A stretch of DNA of 64,000 bases from Dehalococcoidia bacterium (GTDB taxonomy: Bacteria > Chloroflexota > Dehalococcoidia > Bin125), in assembly GCA_965220315.1 (NCBI GenBank), contig CBDCPP010000001.1, forward strand, positions 972,806 through 1,036,805, read 5' to 3'. Below, piece after piece: positions 18,063 through 40,378 of this stretch. The notes under the pieces are model-generated. The model was not told the origin of the DNA. It did no database searches and saw only the letters and a program-made list of their open reading frames with translations. The translations under genes and the position numbers were made by a program. The first letter of the stretch is position 1, and each line of letters starts with the position of its first letter.

Positions 18063-18138
18063 GGGCCGCTAGCTCAATTGGAAGAGCAGCTGACTCTTAA
18101 TCAGCCGGTTGTAGGTTCGAGTCCTACGCGGCTCACCA
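18063..18138 (+). tRNA. tRNA-Lys (anticodon CTT); integration target of the adjacent element
   Basis: GGGCCGCTAGCTCAATTGGAAGAGCAGCTGACTCTTAATCAGCCGGTTGTAGGTTCGAGTCCTACGCGGCTCACCA. Cloverleaf with anticodon loop CTCTTAA and encoded CCA. Confidence 0.92.
18093..18138 (+). repeat. attL core, which is the 3' half of tRNA-Lys and is repeated at 25441..25486 and 26262..26306
   Basis: 46-nt segment ACTCTTAATCAGCCGGTTGTAGGTTCGAGTCCTACGCGGCTCACCA. Direct repeats downstream have 3 and 4 mismatches. Confidence 0.8.
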
Positions 18139-18218
18139 CCCACCCCTCGCGATTTCCCTAGCGCCGTAGGGAAATCGGCACACCCCACCCCGCTGGAAGT
18201 GGCACGGGCGTTCCCGCA

Positions 18219-18240
18219 TGCCACTCGCGTGCCACTCCCT
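18219..18240 (+). repeat. TGCCACTCGCGTGCCACTCCCT motif near attL, with the inverted copy GTGGCACG at 18199; candidate integrase arm-type site
   Basis: A near-identical 20-nt motif TGCCACTCCCGTGCCACTCC recurs at 25319..25338, about 100 bp inside attR, in the same orientation. Confidence 0.4.
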
Positions 18241-18278
18241 GCTGTCTCGCGGGGGCACGCCCGCCGTAGTCTTGGGCT

Positions 18279-19381
18279 ATGCCCCGCTCCCGCTCCGGCT
18301 CCAAGCGCCCGCCCGGTTCTGGCTCCGTTCGCCAGTTACGGCCGGGCGTCTGGCAGGCCCGCTGGTCCGTCGGCAGCGGCCCCGGACGCCGTTATCTGTC
18401 CGAGGTGATCCACGGCACGAAGGCTGAGGCGGAGGCGCTCCTGCGGCACTGGCTGGCCGAACGGGAGCGGACGCGCGGCCTCAGCGGCCTGGCCGGGAAC
18501 CCGCACCTGACCGTGGAGCAGTGGCTGCGTCACGCCTGCGCCCCGGTACCCTGCGCAGCTACACGAACATCGTCGAGGTGGAGCTCATCCCCGGTCTGGG
18601 ATCGCGCCGCCTCAATCGGCTGGCCGTGGGCGACTTGCAGGCCTTCTTCCACACGCTGGCGGACCGTCCCCACTGGCGGCGCTTCGTCCGCTCCGTGCTG
18701 CGTTCGGCCCTGAGCGAGGCGGAGCGCCAGGAGCTCGTGCCCCGCAACGTCGCCCGCCTGGTGCGGCTGCCCACGCCCCCGCGCAAGGAAGTGCAGCCGC
18801 TGACGGAGGAGCAGACGCGGGCGTTCCTGCGGGCCGTCGAGGGGGACCGCCTGGAGGCGCTCTACAAGCTGGCGATCGCCACGGGCATGCGCCAGGGCGA
18901 GTTCCTGGGCCCCACCTGGCCGGACGTCGACCTCGAGGCGGGCACGCTCGCCGTACGGCGCAGCCTCAAGTACTACCACGGGGGCTACCACCTCGACGCC
19001 GTGAAGACGGACCGCTCCCGCCGCACGCTGACGCTGGCTCCGCCGCTGGTGACGGCCCTGCGCCAGCACCGACGGGCGCAGATCGTCCGCTCCTCCTGGC
19101 GACTGGTCTTCGTCACGCGGAACGGGCAGCCTCTGAACGGCACGAACGTCACCCACACGCTTCAGCGCCACCTCGCGCGGGCCGGGCTCCCCCGCATCCG
19201 CTTTCACGATCTGCGCCACGGTGCCGCCACCTACTTGCTGGGGGCGGGCGTGGGCATGAAGGAAGTCTCGGACCTGCTGGGCCACCAGCAGATGAGCACC
19301 ACGGCCGACATCTACGCGCACACGCTCCCGGAGGCGCGGCGGGTAGCCATGGATAAGCTCGCGGACGTGGTCTTCAGCTAA
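18279..19381 (+). pseudogene. int: tyrosine-type site-specific integrase with a frameshift. N-terminal arm-binding domain 18279..~18530; catalytic core 18521..19381 in another frame
   Basis: ORF1 ...GVWQARWSVGSGPGRRYLSEVIHGTKAEAEALL...TVEQWLRHA is a phage-integrase N-terminus. ORF2 (GTG 18521) LRPGTLRSYTNIVEVELIPGLG... carries R...HDLRH...Y (RFHDLRHGAATYLL, ADIYAHT). The two overlap in different frames around 18500-18540. Confidence 0.85.
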
Positions 19382-19507
19382 CTGCGGGCTCCGGCTGGTC
19401 AACGATGCCAACGAGAAAATCGAAGTATTCCTATTGGCTGAGCTGGGTACTCGCTTGCACTAAACTCGGCAGGAGTCGGCTCGAAAATCAGACCACGAGA
19501 AGGCGAG

Positions 19508-19846
19508 ATGCTTCCTGAGACCTTTTGGAACGACGTACCGCCGCTCGACATCATTGAGTACGCGAACAACGTTGAAGCAGAGAGCTCCGTGGCCGACGCG
19601 ACCACTGCTAGAGACTGTGAAATCCAAGCCCTGTGCAAGCTCCACCTCATACGAACTGGGGCAGAGCCAGAGATGATGAAGGAAACCGTACAGTCGAGGG
19701 TCAATACCCGGAGGCTTTTCTTCGGAGAGTGGACCAACGACGGCGGCCCGTTCTCAGAAGAGGAAGTGCTCAACCTACGCTCGCAGGTCAAGCCGTGGGC
19801 ATTCCCTCCGGATTTCAGGTCCTTGCTGGCCGAAATCTTCGTATAG
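19508..19846 (+). CDS. hypothetical protein (island cargo, lower-GC)
   Basis: 112-aa ORF in an AT-richer segment right after the integrase. No recognisable motifs. Confidence 0.35.
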   Translation: MLPETFWNDVPPLDIIEYANNVEAESSVADATTARDCEIQALCKLHLIRTGAEPEMMKETVQSRVNTRRLFFGEWTNDGGPFSEEEVLNLRSQVKPWAFPPDFRSLLAEIFV

Positions 19847-20005
19847 ACCGCATATAGGGCTGTCTGGAACGACGAGTGCTAGTGCTGTAGCGCGTCGTCG
19901 TACACGATCGCGCTCCCAGCCTCCGCCGCCCACACGTAGACATCCACGCCGGTCGTGGGCCGCACCGTGATCCGTTCGCCCGGCGCGAGCGTGAAGGCGG
20001 GGGAG

Positions 20006-27555: not shown

Positions 27556-28359
27556 GTGCAAAACCGCTACGTCGGCGATATCGGGGACTTTGGCAAGTAC
27601 GGGCTGTTGCGGTCCCTTTCCGGACTGCGATCTGATCGCAGCTCTGATGTGCCGTTGCGCTTGGGTGTCGTCTGGTATCTCTACCCGGACGAAGCTCACA
27701 ACGCCGACGGTAAATTCACTGACTACCTTGCCGGTACCCCGGGTAACTACTCCAGGTTTCAGGCCTGCGATCCCCTGCTCTACCAGGCGCTTCGCCAGTT
27801 GGTGGCCGAAGACAGCCGTGGTATCGCCGCGGTCCGCCGCAGGGGAATCCTGCCCGGCGACACGGCATTCTGTGAGCGCAGCCTGTTCTACGCACCCGGC
27901 TCGTCGCGAGCTGCAAGACAGGCAATCCGCGAAAACTGGATCGAAGAAGCTCTCGAAGTCACCGCCGAGTCGGATCTGGTTTTCTTCGATCCCGACAACG
28001 GCGTCTCCGACCCAGCCAGCGGCATCGCGAAGACGGTGAACCCTTGGGACGTGAAAGGTCCCAAGCATGTGCGGCTCGACGAACTGCGCCGTTTCTCGGA
28101 GCGGGGCCAAAGCCTCGTCATCTACCATCACCTGAGCCGCCACGGCACAGCGGTTCAGCAGATCCGCCGCGTTTCCAAGACCCTGCGTTCGAGCCTTCGT
28201 CCGGCCTGCCGCCTGTGGTCACTGCGGTACCGCAGGGGAACGTCGCGCGCTTTCTTCGTTGCTGCGCAGAAGCAGCACGAGTCCATTCTTGAGAATCGGC
28301 TGGCGAGTTTCTTCGACGGCCCGTGGGGCACGCGCAAGCATTTCGAGTTGGTCGAATGA
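27556..28359 (+). CDS. conserved-looking hypothetical protein of unknown family (possible PD-(D/E)xK-like DPD...WDVK motif)
   Basis: GTG start with GGGAG SD. 267 aa, soluble. N-terminal YVGDIGDFGKYGLLR. Central LVFFDPDNGVS...NPWDVKGPKH. No family assigned. Confidence 0.6.
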   Translation: MQNRYVGDIGDFGKYGLLRSLSGLRSDRSSDVPLRLGVVWYLYPDEAHNADGKFTDYLAGTPGNYSRFQACDPLLYQALRQLVAEDSRGIAAVRRRGILPGDTAFCERSLFYAPGSSRAARQAIRENWIEEALEVTAESDLVFFDPDNGVSDPASGIAKTVNPWDVKGPKHVRLDELRRFSERGQSLVIYHHLSRHGTAVQQIRRVSKTLRSSLRPACRLWSLRYRRGTSRAFFVAAQKQHESILENRLASFFDGPWGTRKHFELVE

Positions 28360-28376
28360 ACCGTAAGGCGTTGAGT

Positions 28377-30015
28377 TCAGTCGTGAAGCAGGCTCTTCGC
28401 GAGCAGTCTTGCCTCGTCCAGGTTGTCCACGAAGTGTTCCCCGGGAACCTGTTTGAGAGCGTTGAGGGCGTGGAGGGTTTTGGCGACGGAGGCGGAGAGG
28501 TTCATCACGATGCATTCCGTACTCTCTTCGCCGGCGGTTTCGATGAGCTGCTCGATGACCAGGGCGGCGCTGTCGTCCATGTGCGTGGCCTTTGAGAAGT
28601 CGAGGATCACGACCTCGTGTTCCCGAATGTCGGCGCCGATCACCCGGACCAACTCATTGGCGGAGGCGACGGAGAAGCGCCCCCGCAAGGCGACGAGCCC
28701 GGCGCGGGCTAGGTAAGGATCCGCCTCGGCTGCGTCCGCCTGGTTTGGAAAGAATGTTTGGTCCAGCAGAGGGACGGACACCACGTTGTCGAGCTCGAGC
28801 CGTTCGTACTCCTTGGAGTGTGCGATTCCTGCGGCGACGAGCCCCAGGGCGACGGCCGTCACGAGATCGACGAACACCGTGAGGGCCAGGGTGGTGATCA
28901 TCACCAGGATGTAGTCGCGTCGGATGTGGCGAATACGGGTGAGGAAACGCCAGTCGATAATGTCCCAGCCGACTTTCAGGAGAATGCCGGCGAGGACGGC
29001 ATGCGGGATCGGCTCGGTGACCTCTCCGATACCCAATACCAGGGCTAACAGGATGCCCGAGCGCAAGACGCCGGAGAGCGGAGTGCGGCCTCCGGCGCGG
29101 ATGTTGACTACGGTGCCCATGGTGGCCCCGGCGCCGGGAAGGGCGCCGATCAGGCCCGCGATCAAGTTGCCCAGCCCCTGGCCCATGAGTTCACGGTTGG
29201 GCTTGTGCCGTATGTGGGTGAGGGAGTCGGCTACGAGCGCGGTCAGCAGGCTGTCGATGGAGCCGAGGAGAGCGAGGATGAAAGCCGGTTGTAAGGCGTC
29301 CGCGAGGAACCCGGGCGCGAGTTCCGGCAGTTGCAAGTCGGGCAAGCCCGTCGGTACCGCTCCGATGATGGGGGCATCACCGAACCAGGCGAGCGCGAAA
29401 AGAGTGCCGGCGATCAATGCGCCGAGAGGGGCGGGCAAGAATTTGCGGAGTTTGCGAGGCCAGAAGATGCAGACCGTCAGTGCAATGGCGCCGACGGCGA
29501 GGGCGTCCGGGTTGAGATTTGTCACCGCCTCGGGCCAGGCGCGGACGGAATTGAGCGGCCCGCCCGGGACGGTGGGGGTGCCGAGCAATGGCAGGATTTG
29601 GATCACGATGATGATGATGCCGATGCCGGACATGAATCCGGAGATCACGGAGTAGGGCGTGTAGGCGATAAAACTGCCGACTCTCAGCGCGCCCAAGGCG
29701 AACTGAAGCAACCCGCCCAGCATGACGATGGTGAATGCTTCGGGAAGATTGTCGGCGTGTTGGGTGACGACCACCGCCATGGCGATGGTCATTGGCCCAG
29801 TGGGGCCGGAGATCTGAGAGGGCGTCCCACCGAAGACCGCCGCGAAGAAACCGACGGCGATCGCGCCGTAGAGGCCGGCGATAGGCCCGAGGCCCGAGGC
29901 CCGACGCCACGCCAAAGGCCAACGCCACCGGCAACGCCACCACGGCCGCCGTAACCCCGCCGAAGACATCTCCGGAGAGATCCTGGGATTTGTAGAAGTG
30001 ACGCATTTTGGACAT
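28377..30015 (-). pseudogene. SulP-family anion transporter with C-terminal STAS domain, frameshifted by expansion of a 7-nt tandem repeat
   Basis: ORF 29377..30030 (N-terminus ...VALPVALAFGVASGLGP) and ORF 28377..29969 (...ASGLGPIAGLYGAIAVGFFAAVFGG...STAS) are consecutive SulP pieces in different frames. Removing one AGGCCCG unit restores VASGLGPIAGLY in frame. Confidence 0.85.
29884..29904 (+). repeat. (AGGCCCG)x3 heptanucleotide tandem repeat inside the SulP gene. Two copies would be in frame
   Basis: Plus strand reads ATAGGCCCGAGGCCCGAGGCCCGACGCC. Read directly from the sequence. Confidence 0.9.
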
Positions 30016-31124
30016 GAGTGGTGTAGGCAAAGGGATTGTGACGGAATTCCTGGAGCAAGCTACCTTCAGGAAGGCTCAGGACGAGGATGAGCGCGCTTGC
30101 CGTTCAGGAAATTGGCACGTGGCCAGCAGGATGACGGAGAGACCCAGTCGTATCAATATGAACGGCAGGTGCACGCTGATAGCGAGGGCTGCGGATGAGT
30201 TCTTTCGTCTGTCAGCGCTCCGGATTTTGCGGAGGAACGTGCGTGACCGGTCTGAGCTACCGGTCCAATCGGGCGAGCTTCCCCTCTTGATCTGACATAA
30301 TGTGTGACAACGGCACGGATACCAAGGCGTCCGAGACAACCACCAGGGGCCCAGCTGCCGGAACGAGAATGCCTGCTTCTGTGGCGGGCATTAACTCTAT
30401 GGGGGCATTAACATGACGCGCGAGGTCATCGTTCCTGCCAACCAGGCCGGCCATCACCAACCGAGCAGTGGTGATACGGGTATCGTTCCCAGCGGCTTGA
30501 TTGCTGCCGGTGCTGTGCGGATGGCTTGCCTTCTACAGATCCCGCATCACTTGATAGGGCCACAGCCACCACAGAATCGGGCCGCATCACTACGCCACCC
30601 CCGCTTTGGAGAGAACCGTTGCTCGTGGGCTCCCAACGTCACGAGCTTCGCCGACGCTCGGTGTAGCCACAGGTAAAACGCGATCACGGTAGCGGCGACA
30701 TCGCGATGGTGAGGCCGCCGATCACCAGGATGAGGAAGAGGTAAACCATAACCCTGGATCCGCATCACCCTGGACCGCCAACTCGTCGAAGATCAGTGGG
30801 CCGAGTGCAAGGTCGAGCCTCCCGGCCAGGTCGAAGTCGGCGATAACCAAGAGGGTGATCACTATGCGAAAGAAGGTGTCGAGGCTGAACAGACCCAACA
30901 GGTCCGCAGTCGCCTTTGCTCGCACCCGGAGCGACCGCTACTCGCGCTTGGGCTTAGAAAGTTGGGTTCACCGTTGGAGGCCGCTCCCGTGCTCCGGCGC
31001 GGCGCCAGACGGCTATTCTTTTTAGAATGCTAAGAAGAAGGCTGCGAATCACAACGCAGGGGCAGTACTGACCACAGCTTCCTGTCCAAGCTTTTCATCT
31101 CTTAGTGGCCCGATTCGAGGCGTC

Positions 31125-32975
31125 ATGCAGCGCGATCGCATTCGCAATTTCAGCATTATCGCCCATATCGATCATGGCAAGTCGACTCTGGCCGATCGCC
31201 TGCTCGAACTCACCGAGACCGTCGCCGAGCGCGCGATGGCAGCGCAGCTCCTCGACTCCATGGAGCTCGAGCGCGAGAAAGGCATCACGATCAAGGCCCG
31301 TGCTGTACGCATGGCCTACACCGCGCGCGATGGCTGCGCGTACCAGCTTAATCTGGTCGATACCCCGGGCCACGTGGATTTCACCTACGAGGTCTCGCGC
31401 TCACTCGCCGCGGTGGAAGGCGCGCTGCTCGTTGTCGATGCTGGCGAGGGCATTCAAGCGCAGACACTTGCCAATGCGTACATGGCGTTGGAGCAAGACC
31501 TCACGATCATCCCCGTCGTCAACAAAATCGACCTTCCCGTCGCACAGCCCCAGCAGGTAATGCGCGAGCTGGTCGATGTGATCGGCTTCAGCGAGGGCGA
31601 GATCCTCTTTCTCTCCGCCAAGACGGGATCGGGCGTGCCCGAGTTGCTCGAGGCGATCATCCAGCGCCTGCCGGCGCCCGCAGGCGACCCAGCCGCTCCG
31701 CTCCGCGCTCTTCTCTTCGACTCTGAATACGATGCGTACAAGGGCGTGCTTGCCTACGTGCGCGTGGTGGATGGGGGGATCGCTGGCAGCGCGCCGCTGC
31801 GTCTCATGCAACGGCAGCGCAAGCTGGAGCCGCTCGAGCTCGGCACATTCACGCCGGAGCTCGCGGCGCGCTCTCGCCTCGACGCCGGCGAGGTCGGCTA
31901 CGTCGCCACTGGCTTGAAGGATGTCGCCGACGTGCGCGTTGGTGACACGCTGACCAGCGTGGCGAGGCCTGCTGCCCAGCCCCTGCCTGGCTACACCGAG
32001 GCCAAGCCGATGGTCTTCGCTGGCCTGTATCCTGCCCAATCCAGTGAGTATCCGGCGCTCAAGGCGGCGTTGGAGAAGCTGCGTCTCAACGATGCCTCCC
32101 TCCACTACGAGCCAGAGACCTCGGTTGCCTTGGGCTTTGGCTTCCGTATGGGCTTTCTCGGCCTCCTCCATATGGAGATCGTGCAGGAGCGTCTCGAGCG
32201 TGAGTACGATATCGCGCTAGTTTTCACTGCGCCCTCTGTTGAGTACGAAGTCCTTGCCAGCGACGGTACCGTCCGCCGGATCGATAATCCGGCCGATCTG
32301 CCGGACCCCAGCCGCATCAGTGAGGTGCGCGAGCCCTGGTTGCGCCTCAGCGTGATCACGCCCAACAGCTACGTCGGCACTGTGATGGAGTTGGTAATCG
32401 GTCGCCGGGGCCGCTTCGACAAGATGGAATATATCGATCGCGATGTCTCTGCCGTGGATGCTGGTCGCCAGCGCGTTCTTCTGGAGTTCGAAGCGCCCCT
32501 GGCCGAGATCCTGGTTGACTTTTACGACGAGCTGAAGTCGGGAACGCAGGGCTACGCCAGCCTCGACTACACCCTGATCGACTACCGTGCCGCGAAGCTC
32601 GTCAAGCTGGAGATCTTGGTCAACGGCGAGCCGGTCGACGCGCTTTCCAGCATCGTCCACCGCGCCCGCGCCGATGTGAGCGGTCGGGCTTTGGTCCAGC
32701 GATTGCGCTCGCTCATTCCGCGGCAACTGTTCGATGTGCCGCTGCAAGCTGCCGTCGGCGGCCGCATAATCGCCCGCGAGACGGTCAAAGCGGCTCGCAA
32801 GAATGTGCTCTCAAAGTGCTATGGCGGTGATGTCACTCGCAAGCGCAAGCTGCTGGCGAAGCAAGCCGAGGGCAAGCGACGCATGAAGCGCGTCGGCAAC
32901 GTGGAGATCCCGCAGGAGGCGTTTCTGTCCGTTTTGCGATTAAGTGACTCGAAACCCCGCAAAGCGCGTACCTAG
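31125..32975 (+). CDS. lepA: elongation factor 4 (translational GTPase LepA)
   Basis: [25 protein letters not shown]..., G1-G5 motifs and the LepA-specific C-terminal domain. 616 aa. Confidence 0.95.
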
Positions 32976-34582
32976 CTGGACCCTGCCTCTTCCGCTGCTA
33001 CCGGTAGAGGCGTCTCGGCCGCTCCGTCGGAGCCATTGCTCTCGTTGGATCGGCTCGTGCTAGTCGCTTGCGGGAGCGGTGGCGTTGACGTTGGCTCTGC
33101 GGCTTCTACCTCGAGCGCGGGCCCCGGCTCCTCGGCCACGCTCTCTCCTTCTACCTCGAGCGCGGGCCCCGGCTCCTCGATCACGCTCGCTCCTTCTGCC
33201 TCGAGCGCGGGCTCCGGCTCCTCGGTCACGCTCTCTCCTTCCGCCGCCTCTTCGATCACGACGAGACCCTCTGCGTCCAGGATGGTGCGGCGGATCGCCG
33301 CCAGGGTCTCCGCGTCGGCGCCCTCCAGTGCATGTCTGACCAGTTGGAACAGCGCCTCACCCGTGATGAGCGCGTAGCCGAAGTTTGCGCTGGCGTTGAT
33401 CAAGGTCTGGGACAGGGCCTCGCCGCGATCCTTCGGATGCAGGAGCCGCTTTCCGTTGACGGCGATTACGCCCTTGCGCAACACCCCACTGCTGATGAAC
33501 TCTTTTTCGATCCGGCGCTGCAGCTGGAAGTAACTCGACTCTTTGACCGTGTGCGACGACGCGTCCACCTCCAGCAGGGCGATCTCATCGCCGTCGGCTA
33601 GCTCGGCTGGCTCCCTGAGTTCGGGCGTCACCGTGAAGCCCAGTGCCCGGAACGCATCCCGTACCAGTGGCTCGAAGGCATATCGCCCTTCGCGCCACAG
33701 CAATCCTTGGTAGCGCGCCGCGTCGGTCAGCGCCGCTCGCATTTCTTGCAGGTGTCTCTCTGCTTCCACGAAGGTCTGCTCCGCCTGCTCAACCGTCTCG
33801 CGCAAGTCGCGCAGGTCTGGCAAGTCATATTTCTTGAGCCACGGCGGCGCCTTTTCCTCCTCTGGACTCTCGAGGCTGCGCAGCAGACTTTCCAGCAGCG
33901 CTTCGGTCACATTTCGCCGTGCGGCGCCGCGCGGCTCGGTGTTAGGCGGTGGGAGGAAAACTATTCGGCCTGCCAGCGCCTGAAACTCCACGGCCACGGC
34001 CGCGCCGCCCTGACTGCGCGCCAGCACCGTGCCCACGTTTTGGAAGCCGCTGATCGCGTTCACGTCCCACCAGGCCTGGAAGCGCAGCCGTCCGGCGAGA
34101 TCGTCCAAGTAGGCTGCGAATGCGTGTGCGCGATCGAGTGGTGCGAAGGTTCCGCCGCCCGCACCGGCCAGCAGTTGTGGCGGGCGGTAGACGACCCCGG
34201 GCGGGGCCGGCAGGATCGTGTAACGATCGGCTCCTGGGAGCGTCGACACTGCGGCATGCGGCACAGTTGGGTAGCCGAATACCGCCACCACCCCACCTCT
34301 CTCCAGCAGCAGCTGCAACTCACGGCGGCGCTGCTCCAACAGCTCGCCGAGGCCAAAATGGAAGGCGCCGCTAGCACCGGGCAGCACTGGCGTGCCGCTC
34401 GGTGTTTGATAGGTTCCACCGCTTGTCGCGCCAGCTCCTGCGGCAAGCTCCTCGATCTGCCGTGAGAGCGCTGCTGGATCGATCACACACGCGTCGTATT
34501 CGAATAGCGCCGGCGCGTTCGCGACCGAGTGGTTATCCACTTGCGGATCGGGGAGAGAGAATCCAAGCGATACGATTCGCAT
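32972..34582 (-). CDS. hypothetical protein. Roughly 420-aa globular part plus an acidic C-terminal region with 15-aa tandem repeats ([15 protein letters not shown])
   Basis: 536 aa, no signal peptide. Central segment ...[45 protein letters not shown]... is reminiscent of restriction-endonuclease-like folds, but no family assigned. Stop overlaps the lepA stop on the opposite strand. Confidence 0.65.
33103..33237 (+). repeat. 3 x 45-nt tandem repeat (plus a degenerate fourth unit), coding, inside the 32972..34582 gene
   Basis: Units start at 33103, 33148 and 33193 (CTTCTACCTCGAGCGCGGGCCCCGGCTCCTCGGCCACGCTCTCTC and variants). Produces spurious ORFs 33036..33377 and 33079..33339 on the plus strand. 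Confidence 0.85.
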
Positions 34583-35169
34583 TGTCGTTAAGTTCTCATT
34601 CCCATCAGATCTATACGGCGCGTCCCGCGGCCGCAGGCCGAAAGCGGCTAGCGTTTGTGCTCTGAGTTTACAATTCTATAGGACCTCTGCCCTTCCACTG
34701 CTGTACTGGTTTGCTCGTGGTGTAGGTAGTTGCTATATGTCGGCTCGCATCGACGCTTTGGATAGGCTGTTTTTTCAGATGCGCGCCTTGTCTGGCGCTT
34801 TTCCGATACTCTGATCACGGTCGTGCTAGGCGGGGAGCTAGCGGTGCCCTGGACCCGCAATCCGCTTTAGCGGGGTCGAATTCCCGCCTGAGGGCGTCCA
34901 CTGTGGAAACTGGCGCGGCTAAGCGGCGCTGAAGCTTGGGTCCCGTGCGGCGAGACGCTACGAACCCCGTCAGATCCGAGAGGAAGCAGCGGTAAGTAGC
35001 AGCTTTCGGGTGCCACGGGAGTGCCTGGGCTGAGTTGGCTGGTCGCGACAAGCCCGTGGCGGCGTTCGAAGGCGGGTGCACGGCCATTTTTAACAAACTG
35101 GACCGGTTCGACGGAGGAGCTGCTGTGCCAGTGACTGCGCCGTCCAAGAGGGGACAACAGCGGGATAGG

Positions 35170-36054
35170 GTGCAGAAGGGACGCACTGCGCAGCGCAAGC
35201 GCGTGGTGCGTAGGTCTCGAAAGCCCCCCCTTGGCCAACACTTTCTGCGCGACGCGGCCGTTCTCGACCGTGTCCTCGCCGCTGTCCCGGACGATGGCTT
35301 GCCGTTGATCGAGATCGGCGCCGGCGATGGCGCGCTCACTCTGCCTCTGGCTCAGTTGGGCCGCACCCTGGCCGCTATCGAACTCGACCTCCGACTCTCA
35401 CGCTCCACCGCCCGTGCGCTGAGTGCATACCCCAACACCCGCCTCGTGCAGGGGGATATCCTCGAGTTGGCACCTACCCGGATCCTCAGGGAGTTGGGCG
35501 CTGCTCCACCCTACGGACTCGTCGGCAACCTGCCGTACGCTATCACCGCGCCTATTTTTCGCCGCTTCCTCTCACAACCCGAGCATCGTCCGCGCTGGAT
35601 GTTGATCATGATCCAGCATGAGGTGGCGCTGCAAGTCGTGGCTCCGCCTGGCAAGCGTTCCTTGCTCAGCCTTGCCGTACAGCTCTACGCCGATCCGCGC
35701 CTCCTCTTCCCCGTGGACCGCGCCGCGTTCGAGCCGCCTCCTCAAGTGCGATCGGCCGTGCTTTTCATCCCTCTACGCGACACTGTGCCGGTAACACTCC
35801 CTTCTGAGGCTCGCTTCTTCGAGGTTGCACGGGCCGCTTTCCGCGCCCCGCGCAAACAGCTCCGCAACGCGCTTTCTCTCGGCTTCTCTATCCCGGCCGC
35901 TGAATCCGAAGCATGGCTGCGTGCGAGTGGCGTCGATCCGATCCGCCGTGCAGGCACGCTCACACTCGACGAGTGGGCCGCACTCGCCTGGACGCGCGAG
36001 CGCGCTGGCGCGCCGGCTCCCAAGCCTCTCGATCTCAACCTGAATCAGTCGTGA
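35170..36054 (+). CDS. rsmA: 16S rRNA (adenine1518-N6/adenine1519-N6)-dimethyltransferase
   Basis: LGQHFLRD..., SAM-binding IEIGAGDGALT, and KsgA C-terminal domain. The listed ORF starts at 35035 but a GTG at 35170 gives a typical-length protein. Confidence 0.88.
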   Translation: MQKGRTAQRKRVVRRSRKPPLGQHFLRDAAVLDRVLAAVPDDGLPLIEIGAGDGALTLPLAQLGRTLAAIELDLRLSRSTARALSAYPNTRLVQGDILELAPTRILRELGAAPPYGLVGNLPYAITAPIFRRFLSQPEHRPRWMLIMIQHEVALQVVAPPGKRSLLSLAVQLYADPRLLFPVDRAAFEPPPQVRSAVLFIPLRDTVPVTLPSEARFFEVARAAFRAPRKQLRNALSLGFSIPAAESEAWLRASGVDPIRRAGTLTLDEWAALAWTRERAGAPAPKPLDLNLNQS

Positions 36055-36965
36055 TCACCACCGCGCTCCGTACTGTTGCGCCAGCCAAGCTTAATCTCAC
36101 GCTTGAGGTCCTCGGACGCCGTGACGATGGTTTTCACGATCTCATCTCCGTCGTCCAAACAGTCGATCTCTGCGATACGATCACGATCGCCCCCGCTCCT
36201 GAGCGCAGCCTCCGGTTCGAGATGTCGGACGCTCTTCAGCGCTCCCTGTCGCTGCCCGCTGAAGGCGAGCTCATTGCCCGGATCTGGGACCTGCTGATCG
36301 AAAACTACGGCCCCGCCGTGATCGATGACCGTGCCGCCGTGCACGTCGTTAAGCGCATTCCGATTGCTGCTGGGCTCGGTGGAGGTTCCTCCGATGCCGC
36401 CGCCTTCCTCCGACTCGCCCGCGCCTTCTGGAAGCTGCCCCTGAGCGACGCCACCGCGATCGAACTGCTTGCGCAGGTCAGCTCCGATGCGCCGCTTTTT
36501 CATGCGGCTGGCGCTGTGCTGATGGAAGGTCGCGGTGAGCGACTCACTCCACTCCCGGATCATGCGGGCGCCACTTGGAAGGGCGTGATCTGGACCCCTG
36601 AGTTGCCCCGCCCCGAGCGCAAGACGGCGACCATGTTCAGCGCACTCCGGCCGCCGCATTTTGGCAGTGGTGATCGATCGCGCGCACTAGCTACCCGTCT
36701 TCGGAAGGGACTCCCGCTGCACTCTGAGGACCTCGTCAATACCTTTGACCGAGTAGCCGATGAGGTTTTCGTTGGTTTGCGCGCCGCGCGCCGCCGCTTC
36801 GCCGTCGAGGCCCGATCACTTCCCCATCTGGCTGGTGCTGGACCATCGCTATTCTTGCTTAACCCTCCTGATCTTGAAGACGTTCCCTTCACGACCATCG
36901 TGCGGCCACTTCCGCGCGCGGCCTGCGCTGTCGAATCCGTGCTGCCGGTCCCCACCAATGCCTAG
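36051..36965 (+). CDS. ispE: 4-diphosphocytidyl-2-C-methyl-D-erythritol kinase
   Basis: APAKLNLTLEVLGRR, and the GHMP kinase motif PIAAGLGGGSSDAAA. GTG 36051 overlaps the rsmA stop (GTGA). The part of the listed ORF upstream of 36051 (from 35913) overlaps rsmA in another frame. Confidence 0.9.
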   Translation: MITTALRTVAPAKLNLTLEVLGRRDDGFHDLISVVQTVDLCDTITIAPAPERSLRFEMSDALQRSLSLPAEGELIARIWDLLIENYGPAVIDDRAAVHVVKRIPIAAGLGGGSSDAAAFLRLARAFWKLPLSDATAIELLAQVSSDAPLFHAAGAVLMEGRGERLTPLPDHAGATWKGVIWTPELPRPERKTATMFSALRPPHFGSGDRSRALATRLRKGLPLHSEDLVNTFDRVADEVFVGLRAARRRFAVEARSLPHLAGAGPSLFLLNPPDLEDVPFTTIVRPLPRAACAVESVLPVPTNA

Positions 36966-36992
36966 GCGTCGGCTCGTGGTGCGCACTGCTTA

Positions 36993-37403
36993 ATGGAGTC
37001 GTTGTTATCCGGCTTCGTAGCAGGCTACGCATTCGGTTTGCTTGCGCTCATTCTCCTCGCCATGAGCCCACGGACGCTCCTTGGCTGGAGCCGTCGCCTG
37101 CAGGCTCAATTTCCAGATAATGCCTCGCTACCGGCAGCCTTTGCCGGCGTTGCGCTCGTCGCGCAGACGAGCTGGGGGATCGTTGGTTTAGTCTTCGGCG
37201 CCATCTACTGGGCGCTGCGCGATACTGGTGGCGGCCTCGGCAGCCCCAGCCTCGCTTTCACTATTGCCGTCCTCATGCTCGCGGCGGGTGGCGCCGTCGC
37301 GGCCTGGGTTGTGCAGCCTGCGTGGACGCGGCGCGTCCTCGTCTCCGCGATCTTCTTCGCCGCTATCTTCGGCTGGCTCCTGCCCCATCTCGCAGAGGCG
37401 TGA
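36993..37403 (+). CDS. hypothetical integral membrane protein (4 TM)
   Basis: 136-aa hydrophobic ORF between ispE and the dinG-like gene on the same strand. Confidence 0.5.
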   Translation: MESLLSGFVAGYAFGLLALILLAMSPRTLLGWSRRLQAQFPDNASLPAAFAGVALVAQTSWGIVGLVFGAIYWALRDTGGGLGSPSLAFTIAVLMLAAGGAVAAWVVQPAWTRRVLVSAIFFAAIFGWLLPHLAEA

Positions 37404-37468
37404 CTATGCGCCCGCGCGCGCTACGCTAATCGTGCGCGCCGTTCGTTCGCGTCTAGGTAGGGGAAGGT

Positions 37469-40378
37469 GTGGCCTCCCGCGCTCCCGCTTCCGCGGTACC
37501 GAAGCTCGCAGACTTTGTCGCCCTCGACGTCGAGACCACCGGACTCGACCCGAGCCACGACCGCATTACTGAGTTCGGCGCTGTCCGCTTCACGTTCACG
37601 GGGGCTTCCGAGACATACGAGACACTCGTCGACCCGGGTATTCCCCTGCCAGAAGCCGTGGTCCGTATTACCGGCATCACCCCTGCGCTGCTCCATGGTG
37701 CTCCCTCGTTCAACGCTGTCCGCCTCGACATTGAGGACTTCCTTGGCGACGCTGCGATCGTCGGCCACAACATCGCTTTCGACTTGGAGTTCCTCGCTCG
37801 CGCCGGCGTCGAGCCGCCGGGTCTTGCACTTGACACCTTCGAATTCTCGGCGCTTCTCGCCCCCAGCGAGCGCAAGCACAATTTGGAAGCGGTGGCAGCG
37901 CGTCTCGGCGTTGGCGCGAGCACCCACCACCGCGCCCTCGCCGACGCTGAGACTAGCCGTCGTGTCTTCCTGGTGCTGGTCCAGCAGGCTCGCGCGCTCC
38001 CACCGGATCTCCTGAGAGACCTCGTCGTGCTTGGTGCCGGCGCTGACTGGCCGTTGGCGCAGCTTCTGCGTTCACTCTCCACAGCGGACTCCACTGGCGT
38101 GCCGCCTCCCCCGCCAACGCGCCGCCCGGCGACTCCCGTTCCTCGGAGGGATAAGGAAGCTTCACCCACGCTATCAGCGCCGCTGCCGAGTTGGGACGGC
38201 CCCCCGCCCAGTCTAGCGGGAGAAACTACTGTTCTCCCCTCCCCGGAGGAGCAGATTACTCTGGCACTCGACACGCTCGCCTTCGGCACTGCTCACCCAG
38301 AGATCTTCGGCACCTTCGAGCAGCGCCCGGAGCAGGTCGGCATGACCCGCGCCGTCGCCGCCGCCGTCGCTCAAGGCCGCCACCTCGTGGTTGAGGCCGG
38401 CACCGGTACGGGTAAGACGCTCGCCTATCTCGTCCCAGCCGCTCTTCATGCGCTACGTGAAGGCCAACGCGTGATCGTCAGTACGAACACAATCAACCTA
38501 CAAGAGCAAGTGCTGAGCAAGGACATTCCCGCCCTGCGGATCCTGATCGCGGACGCGATCGGCGGCGAGGCCGCTGCCCAACTGCGCGTCACTGAACTCA
38601 AAGGGCGTCGCAACTACCTCTGTCGCCGTCGCGTCGCGACGGAACGTCTCGCTGACACCAATACCACAGCTGATGCAGGACTCCTCGCTCGCCTCAGCGT
38701 CTGGCTGCGCAGTACCGAAACGGGAGATCGCGCTGATCTTCGCCTGCTCCCTGGTGAGGATTCGATCTGGAACCGCTTCAGCGCGGAGAGTGAAGATTGC
38801 CTGTCCGATCCTAGCTGCCCCTTCGTGCGCAACGGCACCTGCTTCCTACAACGAGCGCGCAAGCGCGCGGAAGCGGCGCATATCGTCGTTGTCAATCACG
38901 CTTTGCTGCTCAGTGATCTCGCTGCAGGTGGCAGCGCTCTTCCTGCCGCCGACACCGTCGTGGTCGACGAAGCGCACCACTTGGAGGACGCCGCCACTCA
39001 ACACATGGGTGTGAGCTTTAGCCCTGAATCCTTTCAGGAACCGCTCGACCGAATCCAACGTCCCGGCCCTCGCGGTGCCCCCGTGGGCCTCGTACCCCTG
39101 ATCGTACGCAAGCTCGGTACCGTTAAAGCTGGGGCCGATACTCCTGTCGATGCAGCTGATATCGCAGCCTCTCTCCCAGCTCTCGCCGCTCGTGTAAACG
39201 AAGCCCTTGATGCACTCGTCGAACTTCTCCGTCGCTTCGCCGCCGATCAGGCAGACGATGCTTTTGGACAAGAGCGTCGGCTGCGCCTCACCGCAGGCCG
39301 CCGCGCCCAGCCAGCCTGGAGCGAGGTCGAGATACAGTGGGAAGTCGCCTGGGACGCGCTCCGTGCGCTCGACGCACGCCTTGAGGCGCTGCACGATGCG
39401 CTTGAGCACGCCGCTCTCTACGTACCCGAACTCGACTCGCTCGCGGCCGATGTTGAGCAGCTGCGCGGGCTTATCCTCGACCGTACTGAGGTAGGCGGCC
39501 GCCTCCTCACACAAACCGACGATGCCATGATCGTCTGGCTGACCGTTTCCAAGCGCACTGGTGCCGTCTCGCTTGGTGCCGCCCCTCTATATGTGGCCGA
39601 GCGTCTTGCCGAGGAATTCTTCGGGCGCAAGCGCTCGGTCATTCTTACAGGTGCGACTCTCTGCACCGAAGGCCGCTTTGACTATCTCCGTGGCCTCGTC
39701 GGCTTGGATGACGCCGACGAGGCCTGCTTCGGCTCTCCGTTCGATTACCGCCGCGCTGTTCGCCTCCTCCTTCCCACAGCCTTCCCCGCTCCTAATGAGC
39801 CCGGCTTCCAGCAGGCATTCAACGAGGTGCTGATCGACCTCGTCCTTGCTAGTGAAGGACGAGCTCTGGCCCTTTTCACTTCGCACGGTGCCCTTCGTGG
39901 TACCGCTAGGGACGTACGCGGCCCGCTCGCCGAAGCTGGCATTCTCACTCTCGCACAGGGTATTGATGGTTCCCCCGCGCGCCTCGTCGCCGAATTGCTT
40001 CGCAATCCCCGCGCGCTCTTGCTCGGTAGCGCGGCCTTCTGGGAAGGCGTCGACCTCCCCGGCGACGTGGTTTCGCTCATCGTCATCGCCCGTCTCCCTT
40101 TCGCCGTTCCCAGTGATCCCGTCTTTACAGCCCGATCCGAACTCTACGAGGACTCGTTCTACGAGTACGCTATCCCCCAGGCCATTGTGCGCTTTCGCCA
40201 GGGATTCGGCCGCTTGATCCGACGATGCGGCGATCGTGGCGTCGTCGCTGTCTTGGATGGGCGCATCACGAGTAGGCGCTACGGCGGGAGTTTCCTGGGG
40301 TCGCTTCCGCCTGCAGAGCAGCGCCGTGTCCCAGCCGCTGAATTTGGTGCCCTCACCGCAGAGTGGCTGAGCCGATGA
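37469..40378 (+). CDS. dinG: DinG-family ATP-dependent DNA helicase fused to an N-terminal DnaQ-like 3'-5' exonuclease domain
   Basis: FVALDVETTGLDPSHDRITEFGAV (Exo I), HNIAFDLEFL (Exo II), HRALADAE (Exo III). Then Rad3/DinG helicase motifs (VEAGTGTGKTLAYLVPA, VVVDEAHHL). 969 aa. Confidence 0.9.
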   Translation: MASRAPASAVPKLADFVALDVETTGLDPSHDRITEFGAVRFTFTGASETYETLVDPGIPLPEAVVRITGITPALLHGAPSFNAVRLDIEDFLGDAAIVGHNIAFDLEFLARAGVEPPGLALDTFEFSALLAPSERKHNLEAVAARLGVGASTHHRALADAETSRRVFLVLVQQARALPPDLLRDLVVLGAGADWPLAQLLRSLSTADSTGVPPPPPTRRPATPVPRRDKEASPTLSAPLPSWDGPPPSLAGETTVLPSPEEQITLALDTLAFGTAHPEIFGTFEQRPEQVGMTRAVAAAVAQGRHLVVEAGTGTGKTLAYLVPAALHALREGQRVIVSTNTINLQEQVLSKDIPALRILIADAIGGEAAAQLRVTELKGRRNYLCRRRVATERLADTNTTADAGLLARLSVWLRSTETGDRADLRLLPGEDSIWNRFSAESEDCLSDPSCPFVRNGTCFLQRARKRAEAAHIVVVNHALLLSDLAAGGSALPAADTVVVDEAHHLEDAATQHMGVSFSPESFQEPLDRIQRPGPRGAPVGLVPLIVRKLGTVKAGADTPVDAADIAASLPALAARVNEALDALVELLRRFAADQADDAFGQERRLRLTAGRRAQPAWSEVEIQWEVAWDALRALDARLEALHDALEHAALYVPELDSLAADVEQLRGLILDRTEVGGRLLTQTDDAMIVWLTVSKRTGAVSLGAAPLYVAERLAEEFFGRKRSVILTGATLCTEGRFDYLRGLVGLDDADEACFGSPFDYRRAVRLLLPTAFPAPNEPGFQQAFNEVLIDLVLASEGRALALFTSHGALRGTARDVRGPLAEAGILTLAQGIDGSPARLVAELLRNPRALLLGSAAFWEGVDLPGDVVSLIVIARLPFAVPSDPVFTARSELYEDSFYEYAIPQAIVRFRQGFGRLIRRCGDRGVVAVLDGRITSRRYGGSFLGSLPPAEQRRVPAAEFGALTAEWLSR

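Follow-up and report, generated by a model that had tools for sequence, protein, structure and literature searches.

Within the 64-kb stretch of Dehalococcoidia DNA analysed here (contig CBDCPP010000001.1, positions 972,806 to 1,036,805; hereafter the window), the open reading frame (ORF) at 27556-28359 encodes a 267-residue protein that, together with its family, is designated X. As far as was found, X is a recurrent component of conflict modules linked either to nicotinamide adenine dinucleotide (NAD+) and adenosine diphosphate (ADP)-ribose or to nucleotides; the family is unnamed and is undescribed in the literature searched. In lineages other than that of the window, partner genes are coupled to X tightly and repeatedly, in two types of module. 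Tentatively, X is regarded as a base- or nucleotide-modifying enzyme of conflict systems that is built on a remodelled RlmJ-type fold, and a role as a group-transfer 'writer' is favoured.

Extent of the family and its genomic partners

The original prediction had described the product of this ORF as belonging to no recognisable family, and library searches bear this out. Single-protein searches of Pfam, NCBIfam, PADLOC, PHROGs and the PDB sequences returned nothing significant, the best Pfam match being DUF3089 (E=0.26) and no PDB sequence scoring better than E=0.2. Likewise, PADLOC-DB v2 yielded zero families for the window protein and for a McrBC-linked relative (E<=10 / 1e-3), and 133 diverse members scanned singly against Pfam shared no family. 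Weak matches of X and of three family profiles to a TetR regulator (E 0.075-0.22) and to colicin immunity proteins (E 0.2) were rejected, as were AI-designed TIM barrels matched by the family profiles, the score of which came from a repeat artefact. A word-indexed search recovered 1,560 homologues; the best 120 of these are 249-282 residues long, share 49-64% identity with the window protein over their full length and contain no Pfam domain, and the few named ones among them are labelled 'hypothetical protein'. An exhaustive profile search of 1.84 billion representatives extended the family to 3,944 clusters at 50% identity, 2,853 of them at E<=1e-10 and 1,104 at E<=1e-30, nearly all consisting of single-domain proteins of 245-280 residues. 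Fusions were discarded as a functional clue: the extensions of P0125, P0215, P0231, P0254, P0473, P0464 and P0495 matched nothing in Pfam or the PDB beyond weak hits to DUF6998 and DUF4351, and gave a single weak cross-match within the collected loci, and P0231 ends in the start of a second X copy and may therefore represent two fused gene calls.

With each species represented by a single genome, X relatives were counted in at least 533 species, and Dehalococcoidia dominate among the closest matches listed. Archaeal hosts among the matches listed belong to the Methanosarcinales, Methanomicrobiales and Hydrothermarchaeales, while the bacterial hosts listed include Bacillota, Acidobacteriota, Alphaproteobacteria (for example Bradyrhizobium sp. 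C9 and Methylobacterium mesophilicum), Planctomycetota, Omnitrophota, Myxococcota, Actinomycetota and others. Distant copies occur on three plasmids, all labelled 'hypothetical protein', and X is also present on nineteen IMG/VR viral contigs; tblastn against GenBank phages gave no match. Twelve of the IMG/VR contigs are syntenic (L091-L102; for example L097:4389-8162; ~60% guanine plus cytosine, GC) and carry X alone and antisense between the genes for a large terminase and an SPP1-type portal protein, a layout that is a moron (cargo gene) slot of one prophage lineage. On another viral contig, GC at third codon positions is 0.61 in X and ~0.85 in its neighbours.

Partner genes were characterised by clustering the ORFs that flank 186 X loci and by identifying recurrent neighbours through Pfam, PADLOC and precomputed annotations. 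One type of module, found in the lower-GC part of the family and sampled by a metagenome scan led by a McrBC-linked copy, joins X to enzymes that process ADP-ribose. Specifically, 17 loci have a gene for a Macro protein of 338-368 residues, composed of a macro domain and a C-terminal extension of ~200 residues, and in 15 of these it is no more than 50 nt from X; McrB and McrC are present in 10 loci each. The architectures observed come from lineages sharing no more than 43% identity and comprise McrB-McrC-Macro-X-vWA-DUF7255; ZacC helicase-221 aa-Macro-X-vWA-PDDEXK_1; McrB(Mrr_N+AAA_5)-McrC-X-Macro-[ADP-ribosylglycohydrolase+SseB]; McrB-McrC-X-NUDIX; McrB-McrC-X-[TOTE primase-helicase-PLD]; and Macro-X-[ARH+SseB], in which ARH denotes the ADP-ribosylglycohydrolase. 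In Stecheria intestinalis and its relatives, the core of X and Macro/ARH is kept and the nuclease is swapped for HamA with a helicase-McrC fusion, for GmrSD+HNH, or for GmrSD-methylase-HATPase_c_3; according to precomputed annotations, loci of this type sit beside type I restriction-modification genes and Cas6, that is, in defence islands.

Several further genes were observed at these and other loci. In gut Bacillota (L190:3454-11585, L153:2454-10587, L192:7001-11213), the core of X, Macro and [ARH-SseB] is followed by a conserved gene of 298-305 residues. This gene was considered as a hidden ADP-ribosyltransferase (ART) of the X operons and set aside, the conserved 298-residue product encoded after ARH/SseB having no Pfam or PDB match. 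In other lineages there is an upstream gene of ~221 residues, which immediately precedes X in L114 and L118, precedes Macro in L109, and is separated by ~660 nt in L130 and L131; either this gene or that of 298-305 residues could be a further component of the system. On a plasmid of Ensifer adhaerens (NZ_CP118613.1; L088:7014-9319), X lies between two genes labelled 'GIY-YIG nuclease family protein' in RefSeq, the downstream one overlapping by 4 bp, with an SRAP peptidase and a DNA methyltransferase also nearby. The GIY-YIG labels were not used, Pfam giving no confirmation at E<=1e-3.

The second type of module is linked to nucleotides and has the order adenylosuccinate-synthetase-like gene (PurA-like; PF00709, ~350 residues), deoxycytidine triphosphate (dCTP)-deaminase-like gene (DCD-like; PF22769, ~290 residues), X, and small P-loop kinase gene (AAA_33/AAA_18). 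The dCTP-deaminase-like gene, whose product has a hydrophobic or coiled-coil C-terminal tail, has a 4-bp overlap with X. Besides free-standing kinases, there are kinases joined to the PurA-like protein and others joined to RNase_H_2-DUF429, and DUF7002 is often adjacent; Alphaproteobacteria differ in that X is convergent with the PurA-like gene and with an RNase_H_2-DUF429-kinase fusion. Examples from Dehalococcoidia and Alphaproteobacteria are found at L025:4040-7394, L040:5150-9738, L197:7001-10195 and L004:6005-9373. X proteins linked to this module fall into no fewer than four distinct clades of a neighbour-joining tree, and the window protein belongs to one of them; within that clade, L197 carries a kinase-PurA-like fusion with DUF7002, and L196 a PurA-like gene that is parted from X by an IS66 insertion. 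The module matches no known system in PADLOC, and no description of it was found in the literature searched.

Dereplication at 60% identity, with 2.5 kb of flanking sequence required on both sides, left 65 X lineages. The PurA/DCD module is present in 11 of these (17%), an ADP-ribose-processing partner in 6 (9%), three of which also have McrBC, and McrBC alone in 1. Macro and PurA genes are roughly single-copy in genomes of thousands of genes, such that one would lie within 4 kb of X by chance in well under 1% of cases, and the enrichment near X is thus large, although the loci were best matches to chosen queries and not a random sample.

Several published systems invite comparison with these operons. 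Certain host systems, termed 'ARG-centric', are predicted to act against viral ADP-ribosylation (Iyer, Burroughs, Anantharaman & Aravind 2022, Viruses 14:1977; PMC9503650); as set out in section 3.8 of that paper, they combine ARG and its SseB or vWA chaperones with Macro/NADAR and with a changing set of restriction-fold nucleases and helicases, are defined by the lack of a coupled writer (ART or sirtuin), and are read as erasing ADP-ribosylation made by phages. The X operons of gut Bacillota and others share with them ARH-SseB, vWA, Macro, restriction-fold nucleases and helicases, as well as the swapping of variable modules inside defence islands. In contrast, the rhodanese-phosphatase and Nudix/WYL regulators typical of ARG-centric systems were not seen beside X, and the window locus, where the neighbours are EamA, SulP and LepA, has none of the parts, which occur in distant relatives 30-40% identical to the window protein. 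X was not found among the components in section 3.8 or by a term search of the paper. The one novel enzyme-like component of those systems, ARPP, is a protein of beta-meander/beta-barrel type in which Cys and Gln are conserved (PMC9503650), and it was rejected as a prior name for X because both the fold and the conserved residues differ.

DarT-DarG, SirTM-Macro and DraT-DraG recall X in its tight linkage to a Macro or ARH gene, in either order, within defence islands, and DarG has a two-domain build comparable to that of the Macro partner. These systems differ in that X matches neither DarT (PF14487; DUF4433) nor any ART or sirtuin profile in Pfam or PADLOC, that its fold is methyltransferase-like rather than ART-like in the models, and that most X genes have no eraser. 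Identification of the Macro partners as DarG was rejected, given that they matched Pfam Macro but not the DarG models of PADLOC. Literature searches covering McrBC+Macro systems, RlmJ-like defence proteins and ARH/Macro defence operons returned no description of X, and none of an RlmJ-like protein linked to defence or to ADP-ribose.

Conserved residues and predicted fold

Conservation was assessed in four alignments: A1 of close homologues (62), A2 of diverse members (133), A3 of phage and plasmid copies (25), and A4, which is Bacillota-led. Across A1-A4, D8, D11, W40, G52, R125, W128, P146, D147 and Y190 are invariant or nearly so, and K14, D51, C71, D72, R88, D145, N148, G149, K170, H192, R195, R231 and W257 are conserved at 90% or more. 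Within the motif that begins at D145, the counts in A2 are 129/133 for D145, 133/133 for P146 and for D147, and 126/133 for N148. Among the phage and plasmid copies of A3, the invariant residues are D8, D11, K14, W40, D51, G52, R125, W128, D145, P146, D147 and K170. This pattern appears to be that of an enzyme.

Two structures were predicted: model 1 with AlphaFold2 for the window protein and 62 homologues (predicted local distance difference test score, pLDDT, 88.2; predicted template modelling score, pTM, 0.89), and model 2 with AlphaFold for a 30%-identical gut-Bacillota lineage (first sequence P0412, Stecheria; pLDDT 92.6, pTM 0.90). The N-terminal half of model 1 runs from a helix (9-22) through strand 1 (36-40), three inserted helices (62-95) and strand 2 (104-106) to a long helix; the remainder consists of a strand ending in D145-P-D-N, a variable loop, a helix, a strand bearing YHH, and then a helix, a strand, a hairpin and a helix. 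The order of secondary-structure elements in model 2 is the same. A two-stranded antiparallel hairpin closing the sheet is a hallmark of class-I methyltransferase folds.

When compared with the PDB using Foldseek, model 1 gave weak matches that are almost all class-I S-adenosylmethionine (SAM) methyltransferases (METTL13 at E=3.5e-3, spermidine synthase, NNMT, METTL16, COMT, fibrillarin and FtsJ), and its weak matches in a viral structure library are again methyltransferases. For model 2, the best match among 350,542 PDB chains is E. coli RlmJ (6qe5_A; E=2.7e-3, probability 0.98, template modelling (TM) scores 0.42/0.39, 282 columns spanning the full length) and the second is another RlmJ chain (4blw_B; E=3.0e-3, probability 0.97), the third match being ten-fold weaker. 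RlmJ had been named as the expected relative, on the basis of motif resemblance, before structural matching. Taken together, an RlmJ-like fold of the class-I-methyltransferase type, with RlmJ as the nearest solved structure, is moderately supported by the models.

RlmJ, the methyltransferase responsible for m6A2030 of 23S ribosomal RNA (rRNA) (PF04378; 4BLW, 6QE5), is like X a single-domain protein of comparable length (280 versus 267 residues), and its Rossmann-like methyltransferase fold, into which helices are inserted, appears to be that of the X models, where the helical insert follows strand 1. The hallmarks of its family are methyltransferase motif X (Y4, H6, N12, D15, K18, H19) and a helical subdomain inserted in the Rossmann-like fold, accompanied by E118 (motif II), D143-G-F (III), 164-DPPY-167 (IV) and W195 (VI); Y4, H6, K18 and D164 are essential, W195 is the base-stacking residue, and D164, D15/K18 and W195 hold the flipped adenine by its N6 amino group (PMC3814359). 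By inspection, G7-D8-x-G10-D11-x-x-K14-Y15 of X, all conserved in the family, parallels G11-N12-x-A14-D15-x-x-K18-H19 of RlmJ, no alignment program having aligned the N-termini. On this view both proteins would have G-(N/D)-x-(A/G)-D-x-x-K-(H/Y) near the N-terminus, as well as a strand that closes with D-P and is followed by one bearing an aromatic residue. Judging from the models, the helical insert of X probably sits at the same topological position as the RlmJ subdomain, D145-P146-D147 appear to occupy a position like that of methyltransferase motif IV, and Y190 may be the equivalent of W195.

X also differs from RlmJ. The canonical SAM motifs are replaced in X, where no Gly-rich loop follows strand 1 (W-Y-L-x-P-D-E...D-G-K in place of GxGxG), DPDN stands for DPPY such that only the D-P half of motif IV is common to both, the motif-II acid E107 is acidic in 76 of the 133 members (57%), and, in both models, the stretch leading from strand 2 to the D-P-D-N strand is shorter by one strand-helix unit (strand 3/motif III). 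The family also conserves four extra Asp residues, D8, D51, D72 and D147. The tail bearing the catalytic Y4/H6 of RlmJ is ~4 residues shorter in X, sequence homology is undetectable, and the patchy, mobile X with its ADP-ribose erasers and nucleotide enzymes contrasts with RlmJ as a housekeeping protein of ribosome biogenesis. We read X as a probable cut-down variant of the RlmJ-type (amino-methyltransferase) Rossmann fold in which the cofactor half of the site appears remodelled, and not as a member of the RlmJ family.

Dam and the other group-alpha N6-adenine DNA methyltransferases, which have a 'GGK' motif X and a DPPY motif IV and are often solitary phage genes, bear a similar resemblance to X, namely an N-terminal G-K-Y-x-L-L, D-P-x-x after a hydrophobic strand, and solitary carriage by phages. 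X differs from them in having no profile match, no FxGxG SAM loop and no target-recognition domain, and Dam is not among the top 50 Foldseek matches.

Candidate functions of X

According to the writer reading, which is favoured tentatively, the Asp-Pro, Lys and aromatic residues of X would form a putative pocket. Given that D-P, the N-terminal Asp...Lys and Y190 parallel D164, D15/K18 and W195 of RlmJ, X probably binds an extra-helical base or a free adenine-type nucleotide with an exocyclic amine. The acidic, remodelled cofactor half-site (D8, D51, D72, D147) would bind something other than SAM in the usual way, and X would transfer a group onto a base of nucleic acid or onto a nucleotide. 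In the Macro/ARH-linked lineages, this group would most plausibly be ADP-ribose from NAD+, erased by the neighbouring enzymes and read by the adjacent type IV nucleases; the window protein would carry out the same chemistry alone, or with partners encoded elsewhere in the genome. A transferase whose mark is erased and read is favoured because three unrelated families that remove ADP-ribose recur beside X, in either order, along with modification-dependent nucleases. The theme uniting both modules would be N6-substituted adenine, the product of adenylosuccinate synthetase being an N6-succinyl adenine nucleotide. ADP-ribosylation of adenine at N6 is itself a proven, defence-related adduct, made by CmdT (PMC11618068). 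As regards chemistry alone, ADP-ribosyl or other non-methyl transfer is placed first, if doubtfully; hydrolytic processing of ADP-ribose or nucleotide adducts and some other chemistry rank equally behind it, each being rather unlikely, and SAM-dependent methyl transfer comes last.

A bolder and distinctly speculative form of the writer reading makes X the founding member of a group of NAD+-dependent nucleic-acid ADP-ribosyltransferases that use the amino-methyltransferase (RlmJ/Dam-like) fold, as opposed to an ART, sirtuin or TIR fold. The base would be flipped and ADP-ribose placed on its exocyclic amine by way of the methyltransferase D-P pocket, with the extra invariant Asp residues handling the nicotinamide ribose. 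Within defence islands, invading DNA or RNA would thereby be marked for attack by McrBC and GmrSD, and Macro, ARH and NUDIX would erase the mark from self; in the PurA-like module, X would act on N6-substituted adenine nucleotides.

A number of observations weigh against the writer reading. Firstly, Foldseek found no PDB match at E<=1e-3 for either model, RlmJ is not in the top 50 matches of model 1, and the TM-scores of model 2 against RlmJ chains reach only ~0.4 (0.36-0.42). Secondly, sequence comparison does not link X to RlmJ: hmmscan with the RlmJ profile (PF04378) gave no match at E<=10 for X and none among the 133 members, and hhalign against E. coli RlmJ and against an RlmJ profile gave a probability of 0.3%, with only the DPDNG/DPPYE strand aligned (161-LIDPPYE-168), although the latter profile is shallow (17 sequences, all at least 83% identical) and the test is therefore weaker than intended. 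Homology to RlmJ by sequence was accordingly rejected, the hhalign results being non-significant, including a forced global alignment that is meaningless. Thirdly, none of the partners is present in 47 of the 65 lineages (72%), the window included, several solo copies have housekeeping neighbours (as in TIM-X-MiaA), and the contexts that inform this reading belong to relatives sharing only ~30-40% identity with the window protein. Moreover, the 160 loci drawn from genomes and metagenomes are the best matches to chosen queries and thus a non-random sample. Additionally, a writer with no eraser would be expected to be harmful, and most copies have no eraser. Lastly, the definition of ARG-centric systems would seem to fit a processing role for X at least as well.

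Such a processing role is the foremost of the alternatives, and although judged rather improbable in its own right, it is one above which the transferase reading is held only slightly. It makes X a hydrolase or phosphoesterase that processes ADP-ribose or nucleotide adducts together with Macro, ARH and NUDIX, acting against adducts made by phages or against soluble molecules derived from ADP-ribose, with solo copies performing harmless house-cleaning. As portrayed in section 3.8, the systems of Iyer et al. (2022) that the partner set of X matches have no coupled ART or sirtuin and often contain an extra phosphatase that processes released ADP-ribose (PMC9503650). Macro and ARH occur together with X in single operons (L153, L169, L107, L190), which would be redundant for a simple writer-eraser pair; the many invariant Asp residues, together with Arg, Lys and His, suit metal-dependent phosphoester chemistry; and carriage as a prophage moron suits counter-defence against nucleotide signals. 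The 72% of lineages that are solo, several of them in housekeeping surroundings, would be easily tolerated for a hydrolase. A processing hydrolase hence accounts better for the solitary copies and for Macro and ARH side by side. Conversely, X comes closest in fold to transferases (RlmJ and class-I methyltransferases) and not to any known ADP-ribose hydrolase or phosphatase, the two-gene Macro-X modules in both orders resemble writer-eraser pairs, and the adenylosuccinate-synthetase-like/dCTP-deaminase-like module is left unexplained.

Less likely again is that X is a SAM-dependent methyltransferase of RlmJ/Dam-like type whose SAM site is unusual and whose target would be a base of rRNA, transfer RNA (tRNA) or DNA, modified at its exocyclic amine, which in the window organism would amount to housekeeping RNA modification. 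The structural matches described above, RlmJ for model 2 and weaker SAM methyltransferases for model 1, are consistent with this view, as are D-P at motif IV and the N-terminal Asp...Lys, which recall D164 and K18 of RlmJ. In one Dehalococcoidia lineage X adjoins miaA, the gene for the tRNA A37 N6-isopentenyltransferase, and orphan methyltransferases are common as phage morons, which fits the moron carriage of X. The active site is a poor match, however: DPDN is not (D/N)PP(Y/F/W), the Gly-rich motif I is absent, E107 is acidic in little more than half of the members, the strand-3/motif-III unit that holds the SAM adenine in RlmJ has no counterpart in either model, and no methyltransferase profile matched. 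Furthermore, a patchy and mobile distribution, with shifting loci and carriage on plasmids and prophages, makes a poor fit for a housekeeping rRNA methyltransferase, and the coupling to Macro, ARH and NUDIX would go unexplained.

Very improbable is a regulatory role in which X, devoid of catalysis, would control neighbouring effectors as a nucleotide sensor or adaptor. Ligand sensing is a frequent task of Rossmann-like domains in conflict systems, and X adjoins many different effectors; about a dozen invariant charged or aromatic residues across more than 3,900 clusters are nevertheless typical of an active site, and most copies have no effector to regulate. A ligand-sensor role has been discussed for SLOG domains (PMC9503650).

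The original prediction had proposed a PD-(D/E)xK-type nuclease with P146-D147 and D165-V166-K167 as catalytic residues, a proposal that is rejected here even though the window sequence has P-D ... D-x-K at suitable spacing, D147 is invariant and relatives of X adjoin restriction components. D145-P146-D147 and K170 are conserved, but D165 and K167 of W164-D165-V166-K167 are not: D165 is Asp in 3 of 62 close homologues and Arg in 42 of 62, the semi-conserved Lys of the family aligns with V166 of the window protein and not with K167, and residues 150-169 form an indel-rich loop of low confidence (pLDDT 64-75) with no beta-strand. Non-conservation of the putative catalytic residues, named at the outset as an outcome that would refute the proposal, is therefore what was observed. 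Foldseek on the predicted structures, the check proposed at the time, gave methyltransferase-like matches, and no restriction-endonuclease fold appears in the top 50 PDB matches of either model; profiles of PDDEXK type in Pfam and PADLOC did not match X, nor did those of Pfam match any of the 133 relatives. In the operons, McrC, GmrSD, HNH or a separate PDDEXK_1 already fill the nuclease role. The companion suggestions that the protein might be defence-related or simply uncharacterised and conserved have fared better, in that the family is indeed uncharacterised and conserved and that it lies in defence islands in other lineages, albeit not at the window locus.

The window locus and the meaning of the family

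Gene calling at the locus is sound. The GTG start, the ribosome-binding sequence and the freedom from overlap that had been described are all confirmed, and the peptides YVGDIGDFGKYGLLR, FFDPDNGVS and WDVKGPKH were all found in the translation. The start is further backed by the 62 aligned homologues, in which M1 is invariant and M-Q-(N/D)-R-Y stands at the same position. The coordinates of the gene, its conserved elements and its neighbours are collected in Table 1.

Table 1. Coordinates in the window of the X gene, of elements encoded within it and of neighbouring features
Feature	Position	Strand	Basis
X coding sequence, 267 aa, GTG start, TGA stop 28357-28359	27556..28359	+	ORF list and sequence; full-length homologues; coincident N-terminus
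Shine-Dalgarno-like AGGGAG, 10 nt 5' of the GTG	27540..27545	+	Sequence reading
N-terminal motif Y5-V-G-D8-I-G-D11-F-G-K14-Y-G-L-L-R19; D8, D11 invariant, K14 128/133	27568..27612	+	Alignments A1-A4
Predicted helical insert, residues 62-95 (three helices), between strands 1 and 2; C71-D72, R88 conserved	27739..27840	+	DSSP on model 1; helices 59-88 in model 2
D145-P146-D147-N148-G149, end of predicted buried beta-strand, motif-IV-like position	27988..28002	+	Alignments; sole stretch aligned to RlmJ by hhalign, non-significant
Unconserved loop of variable length, residues 150-169, with W164-D165-V166-K167	28003..28062	+	Indels in A1, A3; pLDDT 64-75
K170 of G-P-K motif; invariant in A1, A3, A4, 128/133 in A2	28063..28065	+	Alignments
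Y190-H191-H192-L-S-R195, predicted strand after motif IV; Y190 invariant in A1/A2/A4, 23/25 in A3; H192, R195 at least 90%	28123..28140	+	Alignments
R227-G-T-S-R231, turn of predicted C-terminal beta-hairpin; R231 130/133	28234..28248	+	Alignments, model 1
tRNA-Leu(tag)	26404..26488
EamA-family transporter gene	26539..27474	-	Two EamA repeats, E=2e-33
Intergenic region between EamA gene and X	27475..27555
SulP/STAS sulfate-permease gene	28377..29969	-
lepA	31125..32975

The EamA gene, which had been taken for a decayed transporter, is intact (311 residues), as is the SulP/STAS gene on the other side. X is divergent from the former, across 81 nt, and convergent with the latter, which it adjoins without overlap, 17 nt separating the two stops. 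A consensus scan of 27350-28500, which is uninformative for this organism, detected no sigma-70-like promoter and no intrinsic terminator around EamA-X-SulP.

A protein identical to X is recorded in three public contigs. The sister strain L194 has an identical X and shares 99.9% nucleotide identity with the window over 25,320-37,916, a segment that spans tRNA-Leu, EamA, X, SulP, LepA, a 536-residue ORF and RrnaAD; the two diverge at 22,815-25,319, a cassette within an integrase-bearing element that starts at tRNA-Lys (18,063). X is thus part of the conserved backbone, ~2 kb past a strain-variable island (window ~18.1-25.3 kb), and the description of its surroundings as an accessory stretch holds for the island nearby and not for X itself, which lies between two intact transporters. 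The proposed search of homologue neighbourhoods for defence islands, likewise, succeeded in some lineages and not at the window locus: tblastn found none of the partner families (Macro, ARH, NUDIX, McrB/C, vWA, nucleotide module) within the 64 kb. Among near relatives in Dehalococcoidia, the loci of X differ (TIM-X-MiaA; InhA-like/thioredoxin-like; GFO/IDH/MocA oxidoreductase/sulfatase), which suggests that X acts as a mobile single-gene unit even when solitary. Since it retains every strongly conserved residue of the family, the window copy appears to be an intact, stand-alone member and looks functional. P0001, the representative of its 90% cluster, is 185 residues long, is 96% identical over 69% of the length and lies on a 2.56-Mb contig; truncation, a frameshift or a different choice of start codon in a close relative could each account for it.

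Other features of the window lie apart from X. The integrase-bearing element (18063-25320) adjoins tRNA-Lys (18063-18138) and, as judged from the sister-strain annotation, appears to encode a split phage-type integrase and a DEAD-box helicase; GC falls to 55% at 24-25 kb. In its cassette, the window carries an ankyrin-repeat protein and a small membrane-like ORF, and L194 an AAA_15/AAA_21 ATPase and a gene of 139 residues. The ankyrin-repeat protein (23503-25242, + strand; 579 residues; Ank, E=3.6e-41) has a signal-like N-terminus and a segment of ~55 residues, ANVDVTVWRLVADPSLLYVSTRPEGGSWRTLNTPLDMSALSSSGNFHQSNAVRV, that is duplicated internally and near-perfectly, and is an unusual cargo for a Chloroflexota-like genome. 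The 536-residue ORF (32972-34582, - strand), which has no Pfam match and is kept in the sister strain, ends in acidic, Pro-rich repeats that correspond to a 98-nt self-match at 33,103-33,245.

For the window itself the gain in annotation is modest: an intact, solitary and conserved gene of unproven chemistry that does not encode a nuclease. For the family it is wider, in that ~4,000 clusters spread across bacteria, archaea, plasmids and prophages with no Pfam, NCBIfam, PHROG or PADLOC model constitute a sizeable piece of genomic dark matter. The nucleotide module of PurA-like, dCTP-deaminase-like and kinase genes with DUF7002 is worth study in its own right. ARG-centric systems, predicted in 2022, are still uncharacterised in the literature searched, and the order-shuffled coupling of X to three families that remove ADP-ribose and to type IV nucleases makes it a testable candidate for a missing component of these systems. 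Should X prove to be a hydrolase, a new fold would be added to those of the ADP-ribose erasers; should it prove to be a writer, a methyltransferase fold would have been recruited for the transfer of another group, and some type IV restriction systems would make their own target mark.

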